From an uncultured delta proteobacterium (GTDB lineage: Bacteria > Desulfobacterota > Binatia > Binatales > Binataceae), in NCBI GenBank assembly GCA_963808235.1, contig CAWEEQ010000004.1, positions 2,176,001-2,240,000 on the forward strand: a DNA stretch of 64,000 nt, given 5' to 3'. Numbering within the stretch: the first letter of the stretch is position 1; every line of letters begins with the position of its first letter. Positions 58,538 to 64,000 of this stretch are shown in pieces. The notes below the pieces were generated by a model. The model worked only from the letters and a program-made list of their open reading frames with translations, was not told where the DNA came from and did not search any database. The position numbers and the translations under genes are program-made.

Positions 58538-59218
58538 TTACTTGGTGCCCGAGTACACGGCGAACATCAGGTTCTTGTACGCGCAGACGATTTCGCGGAA
58601 GCCCGCCGCGGCGAGCCACTCGAGCTGATCTTCGAGCGTCGCCGCACGATCGAACTTCATCCGCTCGATCGCAGACGCAAGATCGCGCTCGCTCACGCCC
58701 AATTCACGCACCCGCGTCAGCCATCGCTCGTGATTGAACCGATCGAGTTCCGCAGTCGCGCCGCGAAACTGCTCCGCGTTGACGAACACGCCACCGTCTT
58801 TCAGCGCGCCATGAATTTGACCGAACAGGTCCCGCTTTTGGTCGTCGCTCAAGTGATGAATCGACAACGCCGACACGACCGCGTCATACTTGTTGTTGAT
58901 TCGGGCCGTGCCGTAGTCGCTGACCTCAAACTGAAACCGCTCACCGCCGAGCTCGAAGCGCTCGCGCGCCCGATCGAGCATCTCGTTCGATATATCGACC
59001 ATCGTGATGCGCGCCCGCGGAAAGCTGTAAGCGACAAACGCCGCGAGCAGGCCGGTGCCCGCGCCGAGATCGAGAACTTCTATCTCGCTGTCGCGCGGAA
59101 ACCGGAGCAGATCGATCGCCGCGCGGTAAAAATCGTCGAACCCGGGCACCAGGCGGCGTCGCGTGCGGTCGTAATCCTCCGCCGCCAAATCGAACGCGCG
59201 CTGTACCGTATTTCCCAT
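58538..59218 (-). CDS. Class I SAM-dependent methyltransferase
   Basis: YDRTRRRLVP, VLDLGAGTG, VVSALSIHHL and GGVFVNAEQ motifs. Confidence 0.9.
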   Translation of the reverse strand: MGNTVQRAFDLAAEDYDRTRRRLVPGFDDFYRAAIDLLRFPRDSEIEVLDLGAGTGLLAAFVAYSFPRARITMVDISNEMLDRARERFELGGERFQFEVSDYGTARINNKYDAVVSALSIHHLSDDQKRDLFGQIHGALKDGGVFVNAEQFRGATAELDRFNHERWLTRVRELGVSERDLASAIERMKFDRAATLEDQLEWLAAAGFREIVCAYKNLMFAVYSGTK

Positions 59219-59409
59219 CCGAAGATTGTGCTGATGCGCGCATCGTGAATCAACCTTTTTCACGCGCGGCGAGAGCGTTTTGCGATGCAATTAACGATCG
59301 GTAACGTTGTAAACTCAAGCTTCGTCTAGTAAATAGAAACTCGAACAGAATCGTAATTCCCGGTCAGGATTTCGCGACGCCAAGCGAAGCCAATCGAGGT
59401 TCAAAAGCG

Positions 59410-60507
59410 ATGCAAAAGCCAATTATCTCCGCCGACTCTCATATCACCGAACCGCCCGGCACCTACGTGGACCGGATCGACGCCAAGTACAAAGACACTG
59501 CGCCGCACATGATTCACGACGAGAAGCTCGGCGATGTTTTTCTGGTTAAGGATTTCCCGCGCCCGATTAACGTCGCGTTGGCGGCCGCGGCCGGCAAGGA
59601 CGCCAGCGAGCTCAGGACTATCGGTGCAAAGTTCGACGACATGCATCGCGGCGGATGGGATCCGAACGCGCGCATGGCGGACCAGGATCGCGACGGCGTC
59701 GCCGCCGAGATCATCTACCCAACGGTCGGGATGATCCTCTGCAACCATCGTGACTTCGATTACAAGAAGGCCTGTTTCGACGCCTACAACCTGTGGATTG
59801 GCGAGTACTGCGCCGCGCATCCCGAACGACTTATCGGCTGCGGACAGACGGCGATGCGCTCGGTCGAAGAAGGTATCGAGGATTTGCGCAAGATGAAGGC
59901 GCTCGGGCTGAAGGGCGTCATGATGCCGGGAAATCCGAAGCTCGAGGACTACGACAACACTATCTACGATCCTTTTTACGAGGCGGCGGTAGATTTGGAA
60001 ATGCCGCTCAGCTTTCACATCCTGACCAGCAGCACCGATAACTTTCAGACTCGCGGCCCCAAGCTGAACAGCTTTCTGTCGATCATCCGCGGATGCCAGG
60101 ACATCATCGGCACCTTCGTGCTCGGCGGAGTTTTCGAGCGGCATCCCAAGCTGAAACTGGTATGCGTCGAAGCCGACGCCGGCTGGGTACCGCACTATAT
60201 GTACCGGATGGATCATGCTTACGATCGGCATCGGTACTGGCTAACGGCTGGTACGCTTTCAAAGATGCCAAGTGAGTATTTCCGCGAGAACGTATACACT
60301 ACCTTCCAGGACGACTACGTAGCATTCAAGGTTAAAGATCTTTGCAATATCCATCGCTTGATGTGGGCGAACGACTTTCCGCATAGCGACTCGACCTGGC
60401 CGTGGTCGCAGGAAATTCTGAGCAAGCAGACCGCGGGGATGACGCAAGACGAGAAGAATTTCGTCCTGCACGACAACGTCGCGGAGCTCTATCATCTGAG
60501 CATCTAG
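59410..60507 (+). CDS. Amidohydrolase family protein (Amidohydro_2)
   Basis: ISADSHITEP, DQDRDGV.AEIIYPT, LSFH, GVFERHPKLK..VE and MWANDFPHSDSTWP motifs. Confidence 0.93.
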   Translation: MQKPIISADSHITEPPGTYVDRIDAKYKDTAPHMIHDEKLGDVFLVKDFPRPINVALAAAAGKDASELRTIGAKFDDMHRGGWDPNARMADQDRDGVAAEIIYPTVGMILCNHRDFDYKKACFDAYNLWIGEYCAAHPERLIGCGQTAMRSVEEGIEDLRKMKALGLKGVMMPGNPKLEDYDNTIYDPFYEAAVDLEMPLSFHILTSSTDNFQTRGPKLNSFLSIIRGCQDIIGTFVLGGVFERHPKLKLVCVEADAGWVPHYMYRMDHAYDRHRYWLTAGTLSKMPSEYFRENVYTTFQDDYVAFKVKDLCNIHRLMWANDFPHSDSTWPWSQEILSKQTAGMTQDEKNFVLHDNVAELYHLSI

Positions 60508-60520
60508 CACTTTGTTCCCG

Positions 60521-60570
60521 GCGCCGGCGCAGTTACACTTGGCTTAGTGTTTCGCGCCGGCGCTTTTTTT
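60521..60570 (+). terminator. Candidate intrinsic terminator downstream of the amidohydrolase
   Basis: GCGCCGGCGC...GCGCCGGCGC stem with an inner ACAC/GTGT pairing, followed by T7. Confidence 0.5.
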
Positions 60571-60592
60571 ATTCCATCAAGCGAGGGAAAGC

Positions 60593-61030
60593 ATGAAAGC
60601 CAACGCGCCCAAGTGGATCGTCGCCCTACTCTGGATAATTGCGGCGATGGATATCGTCAACGGCATCGAGATGTTTTTCTTTCCATCCGCGTGGTTCTTC
60701 CGGCTGGTCCCGGGAGTCACCGAGACCGGACCGTTCAACGAGCACCTGGTCATGGATGGCGGCACATTTTTTCTGGCGGTCGGAGTCGGATTGGTGATAG
60801 CCGCGTTGAATCCGCGTGGGAACGCGATCGCAGTCGTGGTCGCCGCCGTCGCGGGCGTCATGCATTCGATCCTTCACTTGTACTCACACGCCGTCGGCAT
60901 ACTATCGCCGAAGCATATGGTGACCGAGATACTTGGTATCTACATTCCGGCGCTGGTTCTAATTGCTATTGCCATCAATCTCTATAGTCAGCCGTACCAG
61001 GCGCGCGCGATTCCGGCGCGAGCCGCGTAA
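60593..61030 (+). CDS. Small 4-TM membrane protein (DUF4345-like)
   Basis: Hydrophobic helices, PGVTETGPFNEHLVMDGG and H..LHLY.H. Confidence 0.65.
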   Translation: MKANAPKWIVALLWIIAAMDIVNGIEMFFFPSAWFFRLVPGVTETGPFNEHLVMDGGTFFLAVGVGLVIAALNPRGNAIAVVVAAVAGVMHSILHLYSHAVGILSPKHMVTEILGIYIPALVLIAIAINLYSQPYQARAIPARAA

Positions 61031-61046
61031 TTGGAGAAGTTGAACA

Positions 61047-61622
61047 ATGCGTATCGAAGGACTCGAAGAGAAGCAATTCAGTTGGATTCTGAAGCCGATG
61101 ACCTGGATGATGAAGCGACGAGTCGGCAAAGTGCTGAATCCGTACAAAGCGTGGGCCTATCGTCCGGGGATTACGTTCGCGATGTCGATCTTCATGCAGT
61201 CAGTCGAAGGCTCCAAGGTAACTAGCCCTACGTTGAAACGGCTGGTCTGTTTGCGCGCTGCGCAAATGGTCGGCTGCGTCTTCTGAATAGATATCAATGC
61301 TGCCGGAGGCAGCGCTTTGAAAATAAGCGACGATAAGCTGGCCGCAATCGCGGACTACGAAGAGAATCCGCTGTTCACGCCGGCCGAACGCGCCGCGCTC
61401 CGCTATACCGAGGAGATGACGCTCAGTTCGGTCGACGTGCCCGACCAGGTATTCGAAGAATTGCGGCGCCACTTCAACACCGAGGAAATCGTCGATCTCA
61501 CCGCGACTATTGCGCTCGAGAATATGCGCGCGCGATTCAATCGAGCGTTGCAGGTCGAAAGCGATGAGATATGCCGCCTGCCCGCGCATCATCCGGCGCT
61601 CGCCGCGACGCCTCGGAACTGA
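61047..61622 (+). CDS. AhpD/carboxymuconolactone decarboxylase-like selenoprotein (CxxU, Sec at UGA 61284-61286), 191 aa
   Basis: ORFs 61047-61286 and 61317-61622 are in one frame, separated only by TGA. Readthrough gives LKRLVCLRAAQMVGCVF-U-IDIN...AERAALRY..EM..LRRHF..EEIVDLT..IALEN..RFN. Confidence 0.85.
61287..61314 (+). promoter_or_regulatory. Bacterial SECIS-like hairpin
   Basis: GCTGCC-GGA-GGCAGC stem-loop (61299-61313). The G-initiated apical loop begins 18 nt after the UGA. Confidence 0.75.
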
Positions 61623-61692
61623 ACGCCGCGGCGCTGCGGTCGCGATTGCGCGCGCGACTCCCCGCTACTGACCAGAGATGCACTTTCGGTCC

Positions 61693-61735
61693 AGAGTCGT
61701 GATTTTATCGAGAGTCGCGATTTTATCGAGTCGCG
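61693..61735. repeat. 18-bp tandem repeat (2 copies plus a partial) upstream of the second RND operon
   Basis: agagtcgtgattttatcg agagtcgcgattttatcg agtcgcg. Confidence 0.75.
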
Positions 61736-61865
61736 TGGGCCTGATAATATCCTCACCGTCGATTTGCCGACAGAGGCGGCCATGCGGCTATGCCATTGAT
61801 TCTGCCGTGACTTGATCCTGATACCGTAACCTTGGCCTTGGCGGCCCGTTTTCGAGATCGCGGAG

Positions 61866-63026
61866 TTGAAAGAAATTTTTACGTTGAAGGAATTGTGCGT
61901 ATCGACGCGCGCGATAGCGATCGCCTCGACGCTCGTGCTGGTTGCGCTCGGCGGATGCTCGCACGGTCCCGCTGACTCCTTCAGCGAGCGCGAGGCTGTG
62001 CCGGTGCTGGCGGCGAAGGTCGTGCAAAAAACGGTGGCCGACACGATTCATGCGATCGGCCGAGTCGAGGCGTTCTCGACCGTCGACGTCAAGGCGCAGA
62101 TCAGCGGCCAGGTAATGCAGGTGAACTTCCGGCAGGGACAGGATGTCAAGCAAGGCGACTTGCTCTTCACGATCGATCCGCGTCCGTTCGAAGCGGCGCT
62201 GCGCCAGGCGCAAGCGAACCTCGCCAAGGATCGAGCGCAAGCCCGTCAGGCCGCCGTCGATGAACGCCGCCAAGCGTCCCTGCTCAAGCAGAACGTGGGC
62301 TCGCGGCAGCAATACGATCAAGCCCAGGCAAGCGCCGCATCGCTCGCAGCCACCGTGCAGGCCGACGAGGCTGCCGTGCAGACGGCAAGGCTGAACCTCG
62401 AGTACACCGAGATTCGCGCGCCGCTCGACGGACGCACTGGAGATCTGCTGGTCCACGCCGGCAACCTCGTCAAGCCCGATGCGGACACGGCGATGGTCGT
62501 GATCAACCAGGTGCATCCGGTCTACGTTGACTTCGCAGTCCCCGAGCACAAGCTGCCGGAGGTTCGCGCCTACATGGCGAAGCACAAGCTCGGTGTCGAA
62601 GTTTCGCTGCCCGAGCAACAGGGTCCCACGGAGACCGGCGAGCTGAGCTTCGTGGATAACAGCGTCGATGCGAAGACCGGAACGATCAATCTGAAGGGGC
62701 TCTTCGCCAATGCGGACGCGCGGCTGTGGCCGGGCGAGTTCGTAAACACGACGCTCATCTTGAACCAGCGCAACGACGCGATCCTGGTGCCGTCCGAGGC
62801 GATTCAGAGCGGTGCGGAAGGCTCGCACGTTTTCGTCGTGCAGCCGGGAATGAAAGCCGAGATGCGCGAAGTCGTAGTCGGCGAATCGCTCGACAACATG
62901 ACCGTCGTCACCCGCGGACTCAAAGCCGGCGAGACGGTTGTGACCGACGGACAGCTGCGGCTGATTCCCGGCGCGAAAGTGACTATCAAGAGCGGGCTCG
63001 CCGCGAACGGCGGAGTGGCGTCATGA
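61866..63026 (+). CDS. RND efflux periplasmic adaptor (lipoprotein)
   Basis: Lipobox LGGC, STVDVKAQISGQ, IDPRPF, IRAPLDGRTG, DNSVDAKTGTI and LWPGEFV. Exact start uncertain. Confidence 0.92.
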   Translation: MKEIFTLKELCVSTRAIAIASTLVLVALGGCSHGPADSFSEREAVPVLAAKVVQKTVADTIHAIGRVEAFSTVDVKAQISGQVMQVNFRQGQDVKQGDLLFTIDPRPFEAALRQAQANLAKDRAQARQAAVDERRQASLLKQNVGSRQQYDQAQASAASLAATVQADEAAVQTARLNLEYTEIRAPLDGRTGDLLVHAGNLVKPDADTAMVVINQVHPVYVDFAVPEHKLPEVRAYMAKHKLGVEVSLPEQQGPTETGELSFVDNSVDAKTGTINLKGLFANADARLWPGEFVNTTLILNQRNDAILVPSEAIQSGAEGSHVFVVQPGMKAEMREVVVGESLDNMTVVTRGLKAGETVVTDGQLRLIPGAKVTIKSGLAANGGVAS

Positions 63027-64000
63027 ATATCGCGCAACCATTCATTCGCCGCCCGGTTATGACGACGCTGAGTTCGCTCGCGATCGTCTTGTTCGGACTG
63101 ATGGCGTATCGATTTCTGCCGGTGAACGATCTGCCTAACGTCGATTTTCCGACGATCGTTGTCAGCGCAAGCCTGCCCGGCGCGAGTCCGGAAACAATGG
63201 CCTCGTCGGTCGCAACGCCGCTCGAAAAACAATTCTCGACGATAGCCGGGCTCGACTCGATGACCTCGAGCAATATCCAGGGCTCGACCAACATAACTTT
63301 GCAGTTCGATCTTACGCGCAATATCGACGCCGGCGCGCAGGACGTGCAGGCCGCAATCGCCGAGACGCAGGCGCAACTGCCGCAAGGGATGCCGAGTCCG
63401 CCGTCGTATCGCAAAGTGAATCCCGCCGACCAGCCGATTCTTTACTTGGGCCTCAGCTCGAAGACGATGCCGATCTCGCAGGTCGACGAGTACGCCGAGA
63501 CCTACCTCGCCGAGCGCATCTCGATGATCAGCGGCGTCGCGCAGGTCCAGGTTTACGGCTCGCAGAAATACGCAGTGCGCATTCAGCTCGATCCCAAGGC
63601 GCTCGCAACTCGCGGCATCGGCATCAACGAAGTCTCGCAGGCAATCCAGGACGCCAATGTCGATATGCCGACCGGCACGCTCTATGGGGCACATCAGGCG
63701 TTCACCGTCCAGGCGCACGGGCAGTTGACGAACGCGGCGGCGTACCGCCCGCTGATCGTCGCTTATCAAAACGGATCGCCGGTCCGCATCGAGGACATCG
63801 GCCGCGTGCTCGACAGCGTGCAGAACGACAAGACCGCCGGATGGTCGAACGGCGAGCGCTCGGTGGTGCTCGCGATTCAGCGTCAGCCCGGAACCAATAC
63901 GGTCCAGGTGGTCGACAACGTGCTGCGGCTGCTTCCCGCTTTCAGAGCGGAAGTGCCGGTCGCGCTACATATCAACACGCTCGGCGATCACGCGGAGACG
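63023..64000 (+). CDS. RND efflux permease (3'-truncated by window edge)
   Basis: [53 protein letters not shown], open to the window end. ATGA overlap with the adaptor gene. Confidence 0.93.
   Translation, partial: MNIAQPFIRRPVMTTLSSLAIVLFGLMAYRFLPVNDLPNVDFPTIVVSASLPGASPETMASSVATPLEKQFSTIAGLDSMTSSNIQGSTNITLQFDLTRNIDAGAQDVQAAIAETQAQLPQGMPSPPSYRKVNPADQPILYLGLSSKTMPISQVDEYAETYLAERISMISGVAQVQVYGSQKYAVRIQLDPKALATRGIGINEVSQAIQDANVDMPTGTLYGAHQAFTVQAHGQLTNAAAYRPLIVAYQNGSPVRIEDIGRVLDSVQNDKTAGWSNGERSVVLAIQRQPGTNTVQVVDNVLRLLPAFRAEVPVALHINTLGDHAET

Follow-up and report, generated by a model that had tools for sequence, protein, structure and literature searches.

Selenoproteins of the AhpD-like type with a CxxU motif, and selenoproteins carrying a CMD domain, have been known from the Sargasso Sea since 2005 (PMC1088965). 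In the Global Ocean Sampling (GOS) data they are among the commonest selenoprotein families, with 299 genes of the AhpD-like 1 type and 70 of the AhpD-like 2 type (pfam02627), the latter being more abundant in non-marine samples (PMC2398784), and the name 'AhpD-like protein' has been tied to COG2128 (YciW) and to TIGR01926 (PMC9312934, PMC13188914); here and below, what we take from these four papers comes from excerpts of them. In this paper we analyze a gene at positions 61047-61622, on the plus strand of a 64,000-nucleotide stretch of DNA (which we call the window; C4:2176001-2240000 of genome G000), which is split in two by an in-frame TGA under the standard bacterial code. Our analysis indicates that this is very probably one selenoprotein gene, with the UGA decoded as selenocysteine (Sec), and that the gene is a somewhat divergent addition to the known AhpD-like class. 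With the metagenomic families AhpD-like 1 (COG2128/YciW, TIGR01926) and AhpD-like 2 (PF02627), as the excerpts describe them, it shares the CxxU motif, the CMD/AhpD domain, a selenocysteine insertion sequence (SECIS) directly past the UGA, and widespread Cys homologs. It differs from the Sargasso Sea and GOS proteins in coming from a soil lineage (Candidatus Binataceae, according to the source names of its homologs) and in being usually paired with a membrane protein containing four conserved His, a pairing of which we found no mention in the excerpts of the AhpD-like selenoprotein literature.

Among solved proteins, one of the nearest by sequence is PA0269 (2ijc, 2o4d and 7xw1), which is about 30% identical, places its CxxC on C77..U80 of our protein, and shares the helical core with a template modelling (TM) score of 0.88-0.91 normalised to the target. 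PA0269 differs in having 145 residues, lacking roughly the first 55 residues at the N-terminus, carrying Cys in place of Sec, and having His where our protein has Asn four residues past the motif. Mycobacterium tuberculosis AhpD (1knc, 1gu9, 1lw1) belongs to the same superfamily and employs the same CxxC redox idea, its second Cys being the nucleophile toward AhpC. The fold match is weak (E about 0.7, TM 0.40-0.45), and our protein, in contrast to AhpD, has neither the His at +4 nor an adjoining AhpC gene; 1lw1 is, by its title, an H137F mutant. Finally, the NCBIfam family NF053654, 'GroundWater_YciW', aligns with our protein from end to end and its name allows for Sec; the protein scores under the curated cut-off, and is a relative of this family rather than a member of the equivalog. 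A literature search for selenoproteins of Binatia returned none among the matches listed.

Results

The gene starts with an ATG at 61047-61049 and ends, after 191 codons, with a TGA at 61620-61622, and the frame between the two is interrupted solely by the TGA at 61284-61286. Under translation table 11 the same frame yields two open reading frames, 61047-61286 (79 aa) and 61317-61622 (101 aa, with a TTG start), as the initial annotation had noticed. As it had also proposed, reading through the TGA gives a protein of 191 aa, ...AAQMVGCVFU(80)IDINAAGGSALK..., in which the UGA takes the place of the second Cys of a CxxC motif; the motif C77-V78-F79-U80 occupies 61275-61286 and lines up with the CxxC of the debrominase Bmp8 and of CMD-family proteins whose structures are solved. 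A GGAG motif at 61033-61036, on the plus strand 10 nt before the ATG, resembles a ribosome binding site and may serve as one. The TGA is also present in soil-metagenome contigs from two studies: record 2 of X1 shows 0 differences from the window (X1 may be the source sample), and record 7 of X2 shows one synonymous difference, at 61319.

Could the TGA be a true stop, the gene having been broken by a nonsense mutation or consisting of two small genes that encode 79 and about 101-111 aa? Table 11 does split the frame, and public annotation does call the C-terminal piece alone in 40 of the 70 matches that a database search returned, pieces of 105-132 aa that bear out the earlier claim that standard gene callers split this gene (four that we inspected begin with MDINAAGG or MDINSAGG, immediately past the TGA). 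However, this codon is TGA in all 30 metagenome loci that cover it and in 29 genome loci, which belong to several families of the class, both halves are conserved in one frame at 77-88% identity, the Pfam domain of the protein crosses the stop while the halves score nothing alone, and unsplit forms with Cys exist. We thus regard a true stop as exceedingly improbable. One further database protein, P0061 (296 aa), is another miscall, in which the C-terminal portion of an ortholog is joined to a frame that enters the downstream membrane-fusion gene.

If the UGA encodes Sec, one expects Cys or Sec at residue 80 of the homologs, as the initial annotation had predicted. From the 70 database matches, 25 (P0003-P0020, P0064, P0065 and P0068-P0072) were aligned with the query, the other 45 (P0021-P0063, P0066 and P0067), nearly all partial pieces, being left out of the protein alignment. 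Residue 80 is Cys in 18 of the 25, Trp in 4 and Glu in 3, the Glu rows being distant and without both Cys. At the level of DNA, codon 80 is TGA in 29 and TGC or TGT in 5 of 34 genome loci (L022-L055), of which 31 were caught by our search pattern and three (L045, L046, L053), missed by it, were read separately. Protein and DNA together agree with the prediction. Within the genus, 16 of the 24 other genomes carry an ortholog that is 77-88% identical and has exactly one TGA (18 ortholog loci in all), two (G011 and G015) carry Cys forms that are 56-58% identical, and 6 are without a close ortholog. Other families of this class have TGA forms as well, with identities of 32-46%. In a scan of metagenomes 35 loci were found, 5 of which fall short of the site; all 30 that cover it have TGA.

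Two details of these loci deserve mention. Relatives listed with '2 TGA' had been considered as double selenoproteins, a reading that we reject for G025:C242, in which the second TGA belongs to a terminal TGATGA. In one genome that is 64% complete, the ortholog (G020:C9:236991-237525, L040) lies in two frames that match query residues 1-61 and 61-178 and overlap by a few bases, suggesting that the reading frame has shifted or that the assembly is wrong there.

On a tree of 33 Sec and Cys forms (L040 was excluded, its match being too short) the Cys forms stand in three places among the Sec forms, requiring at least 3 changes. The tree is unrooted and its long branches meet; the well-supported branches force no more than one Sec/Cys change, and we make no claim as to the direction of change.

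Bacterial Sec insertion depends on a hairpin close behind the UGA, and the initial annotation had pointed to a perfect hairpin, GCTGCC-GGA-GGCAGC, whose G-led loop comes 18 nt after the UGA. This hairpin is present and, moreover, is conserved with compensatory changes. It occupies 61299-61313 on the plus strand, with a 6-bp stem (GCUGCC/GGCAGC; arms at 61299-61304 and 61308-61313) and the apical loop GGA at 61305-61307, all within codons A85-A86-G87-G88-S89, and the distance from the A of the UGA to the first G of the loop is exactly 18 nt. ViennaRNA, applied to 61284-61331, places it in the minimum free energy (MFE) fold, with -13.2 kcal/mol compared with a mean of -7.62 for shuffled sequences. 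With z = -2.37, and with 5 of 200 shuffles folding as well, the single sequence is only mildly unusual, and it is the comparative data that lift the hairpin beyond chance, since it is kept with covariation in all of 26 aligned TGA forms. According to the excerpt of PMC13188914, the bacterial SECIS model has a loop of 3-9 nt, an upper stem of 4-16 bp, a G in the first two loop positions, a spacing of 16-37 nt from the UGA, and an MFE of at most -7.5 kcal/mol. With a 3-nt loop, a 6-bp stem, a spacing of 18 nt and an MFE of -13.2 kcal/mol, our hairpin falls within every one of these limits.

The comparative data come from alignment A2, which is gapless and holds the 26 TGA forms found by pattern, L045, L046 and L053 not being among them. 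RNAalifold, run on A2, independently predicts exactly this 6-bp hairpin (columns 16-21 and 25-30). Of 156 cells 98.7% are paired and three of the pairs are invariant, while pair 16-30 occurs as GC 21 times, as UA twice, and as GU and UG once each (unpaired once), and pair 18-28 as UA 22 times, CG 3 times and UG once. None of 500 shuffles matches the observed covariation score or the percentage paired, and sliding the partner by -2, -1, +1, +2 or +3 reduces the pairing to 18.6-54.5%. The first base of the loop is G in 26 of 26 rows and the second is G or U. As for the three TGA forms outside A2, the offset is unchanged in L045, whose hairpin reads GCUGCC-GUC-GGCAGC; L046 shows a variant of 5 bp with a 5-nt loop (read by eye; the MFE fold from RNAfold is another structure); and in L053 we read, likewise by eye, a different hairpin, of 8 bp and with loop GGC, some 20 nt past the UGA, which is not the MFE fold. 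In the 5 Cys forms, checked at +15 to +29, there is no such hairpin. An Rfam scan of 59000-64000 gave nothing at the hairpin, its one match being a chance-level miRNA (E 0.24, 23.7 bits vs 80).

Two of the same-genus genomes are unpublished. G023 (L032) accounts for a single TGA ortholog among the 16, a single row among the 26 of A2 and a single row in the tree, and G018 belongs to the 6 genomes that lack a close ortholog. Leaving both out changes the counts to 15 of 22 genomes and 25 of 25 rows; G023 supplies no covarying row, and the conclusions are unaffected.

Decoding UGA as Sec also calls for the corresponding machinery, and the expectation that the genome encodes SelA, SelB, SelC and SelD is borne out. 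The genome (4.59 Mb in 4 contigs, 92.95% complete) has a tRNA-Sec at C2:2375-2466 (72.2 bits; SeC with anticodon TCA according to ARAGORN), as well as selA (569.9 bits), selB (371.5 bits) and selD (378.2 bits), and the machinery scores are all above their curated cut-offs. The selD gene adjoins selB (G000:C4:3730297-3733447, loci L010 and L018, outside the window) and itself has one in-frame TGA, so that it presumably encodes a Sec-type selenophosphate synthetase. Elsewhere outside the window, four AhpC-TSA (peroxiredoxin-family) matches, at C4:402489-402866, C4:3749008-3749346, C4:2362160-2362498 and C2:218049-218279, each hold one in-frame TGA and are candidate Prx-like selenoproteins. The full machinery, the Sec-type selD and these four frames together suggest a sizeable selenoproteome.

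What kind of protein is encoded? The Pfam CMD model (PF02627) scores 34.9 bits against a gathering cut-off of 23 on the joined protein, over residues 60-123 and hence spanning the UGA, while neither half alone gives a Pfam match at E ≤ 0.01. The best NCBIfam model is NF053654, 'YciW-related (seleno)protein', with E 1.3e-39 over positions 2-175 of 179. The nearest solved proteins by sequence are the CMD-family entries 7xw1, 2ijc and 2o4d (E about 4e-18; PA0269 is named in the PDB titles of 2o4d and 2ijc), followed by Atu0492 and Bmp8, and the CxxC of each aligns with C77..U80. An AlphaFold model built with alignment A1 is all-helical with a mean predicted local distance difference test (pLDDT) of 89.6, and Foldseek, given the model, returns AhpD and peroxidase-related structures with probability 1.00 and TM 0.79-0.84 over the full length. 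The assignment of fold and motif is well supported; the substrate of the 191-aa protein is uncertain.

Discussion

Several of our observations pull against reading the locus as a selenoprotein gene with a peroxide-related product, and we consider them together here. The first concerns residue 80. Four close database proteins, P0003-P0006, which are 80-83% identical and come from contigs of 1.0-1.5 kb, show Trp at this residue, a finding that the initial annotation had named as one that would tell against Sec, and among the loci examined there is no exact coding locus for them, even under table 4. The DNA that can be seen speaks otherwise. The metagenome scan described above was seeded with P0003, itself one of the proteins that print Trp, and TGG at codon 80 occurs nowhere in the relatives' DNA examined (the 30 metagenome loci, the G000 locus and the 18 same-genus ortholog loci). 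Since the DNA of these close relatives shows TGA throughout and TGG nowhere, the Trp in P0003-P0006 is most likely a TGA translated under code 4 on short contigs.

These four proteins are also what favors the possibility that the UGA is read as Trp or Cys without selenium, through reassignment of the code or near-cognate suppression. Such a reading would have to contend with the fact that the same gene terminates at a TGA where its homologs end, that homologs carry Cys rather than Trp and the DNA examined has no TGG, that the genome has the complete Sec machinery, with an in-frame TGA in selD itself, and that the hairpin is conserved at a specific position, where it would have no role in plain suppression. 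We consider selenium-free readthrough very improbable, and return to decoding as Sec.

The second group of observations concerns the hairpin. With its partner slid by -3, A2 is still 92.3% paired, which reflects a G+C-rich, self-complementary sequence; the hairpin encodes the conserved peptide AAGGS, so that its conservation is partly at the protein level; and the sequences are related, most of the covarying rows coming from few lineages. Because the stem encodes this conserved peptide (A85-A86-G87-G88-S89), we examined third codon positions in 41 loci, which represent 38 distinct close genes with 114 conserved degenerate codons. Only 9 of the 114 codons are without third-base variation, and these include the stem codons A85 (GCT), A86 (GCC) and G88 (GGC). 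The fourth stem codon is AGC in 36 genes and AGT in 1, the AGT retaining a G-U pair. The codon of the loop, G87, is variable (GGA 3, GGT 31, GGC 4), and the flanking codons are likewise variable. For at least 3 of 4 chosen codons to fall among the 9 of 114, the chance, by hand arithmetic, is about one in a thousand.

The remaining points bear on the family and on expression. The NF053654 score of 135.8 bits is under the curated cut-off of 310, and TIGR01926 (peroxidase-related enzyme) scores 36.7 bits, under its cut-off of 81.8, so that 'peroxide-related' is a family-level guess. Four residues past the second redox residue our protein has Asn84 (C77-x-x-U80-I-D-I-N84), the same site being His in PA0269 (C-x-x-C-V-N-M-H) and Atu0492 (C-x-x-C-V-D-M-H), and Gly in the Cys forms of its own clade. 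The CxxC...His motif of AhpD has a functional role, and the combination of CxxC with His at +4, a feature of AhpD proper, is absent from the 191-aa protein. No AhpC-TSA match was found in the window (C4:2176001-2240000), the nearest being at C4:2362160, about 122 kb past the window end. Lastly, none of the RNA runs searched for 60593-61622 contains the stretch, and we infer the actual incorporation of selenium at the UGA from sequence comparison.

With these points in mind, we propose the following picture. The hairpin at 61299-61313 would recruit SelB together with Sec-tRNA(Sec), the UGA at 61284-61286 would be decoded as Sec, and translation would then run on to the true stop at 61620. The product would be a cytoplasmic, all-helical thiol-selenol oxidoreductase of the CMD/AhpD fold, in which Sec80, standing in place of the second Cys of the CxxC, would act as the attacking nucleophile with Cys77 as its resolving partner. 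The enzyme may alternate between selenol/thiol and selenenylsulfide states as it reduces an oxidised substrate, for which a hydroperoxide or an oxidised partner of the peroxiredoxin type is the likeliest candidate.

Alternatively, the protein could be a selenoprotein unrelated to peroxide, its CxxU serving another thiol reaction such as reductive dehalogenation in the manner of Bmp8 or the reduction of a small molecule. Bmp8 relies on redox thiols, and deiodinases dehalogenate with the help of Sec. Bmp8 aligns with residues 15-171 (E 5.6e-10) with its CxxC on C77..U80, the fold agrees with TM 0.79, the +4 His of PA0269 and Atu0492 is missing, and there is no AhpC gene nearby. On the other hand, the identity to Bmp8 is just 18-20%, no halogenase or biosynthetic genes adjoin (the neighbours are an amidohydrolase, a methyltransferase and a resistance-nodulation-division (RND) efflux pair), and most of the structural neighbours found by Foldseek carry peroxidase-related or AhpD labels. 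We judge a function of this kind to be distinctly unlikely, and prefer a hydroperoxide or peroxiredoxin-type substrate as stated above.

What might the enzyme work with? Directly upstream, at 60593-61030 on the same plus strand, lies a gene for a membrane protein of 145 aa, its stop being 16 nt from the ATG of the selenoprotein gene. From its sequence we count four predicted helices, no Cys and five His in total. The protein has 275 database homologs. The Pfam family DUF6632 (PF20337, cut-off 27) gives 16.1 bits for the protein of the window, 27.4 for the relative P0108 and 25.1 for P0155, and the leads from the Atlas are DUF4345-like hypothetical proteins. In 21 sequences of the membrane protein, down to 33% identity, H51, D55, H91, H95 and H108 are invariant, and the first loop has a conserved T-G-P-x-N-x-H motif. 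By the positive-inside rule, most of these residues would lie on the outer side, opposite to the cytoplasm in which the CMD protein is expected.

The two genes keep company widely. Of 45 close loci, with an identity of 74% or more and an upstream flank of 455 nt or longer, 41 have the membrane-protein gene immediately before the selenoprotein gene and on the same strand. L025, L026, L071 and L073 lack it, and in L024 and L027 it is degenerate. Since the gene is missing in L025, L071 and L073, where the amidohydrolase gene precedes the selenoprotein gene at a distance of about 200 nt, the pairing is common rather than obligatory. Among 15 more distant loci, 4 have the membrane-protein gene upstream, namely both Cys forms from the genus and two from another family of the class (35-36% identical, with membrane proteins that are 36-37% identical), and none of the 10 distant TGA forms checked has it. 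This conserved adjacency supports a functional link between the membrane and CMD proteins, which would then be independent of Sec. The initial annotation had gone further in suggesting a co-transcribed membrane module for redox or peroxide chemistry. The adjacency on which it was founded turns out to be conserved, and the module itself is an extrapolation from that adjacency. A complex prediction for a same-genus Cys-form pair (P0013 and the neighbouring membrane protein; alignments A4 and A5) gave a score of 0.00 and a mark of 0.32, values that are uninformative on binding. One may speculate that the CMD protein, in its Sec or Cys form, and the four-helix membrane protein, which is free of Cys, make up an undescribed two-component system, in which a metal or haem center of the membrane partner would supply or accept electrons, or would sense or deliver the substrate, although we think this unlikely to prove correct as it stands.

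In the genus and its relatives the gene is annotated as a fragment of 105-132 aa or as a 'hypothetical protein'. Calling it correctly restores a full redox enzyme and enlarges the selenoproteome of this soil lineage. The 26 aligned TGA forms, moreover, display a minimal SECIS, of 6 bp and a 3-nt loop, with a stem that constrains four codons, and may be a test case for SECIS predictors. Relative to the literature consulted, only the conserved pairing with the four-His membrane protein is new.

Some features of the surroundings remain to be described. The amidohydrolase gene upstream (59410-60507) is followed, past its stop, by a terminator-like element on the plus strand at 60520-60571, a long hairpin (60520-60564) with seven T behind it. 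The hairpin folds with -32 kcal/mol (z = -5.33, with 0 of 200 shuffles folding as well) and likely marks a transcript boundary upstream of the two-gene unit. A simple promoter and terminator scan of 60300-62000 lists no terminator and no plus-strand promoter, this hairpin having a loop longer than the scan allows. Downstream of the selenoprotein gene there is a gap of 243 nt, followed by a HlyD-type membrane-fusion gene and an AcrB-type gene. Within the gap, at 61690-61725, we observe an 18-nt tandem direct repeat, TCCAGAGTCGTGATTTTA / TCGAGAGTCGCGATTTTA, with 89% identity between its copies, which overlaps two minus-strand promoter-like matches and may be the binding site of a regulator.

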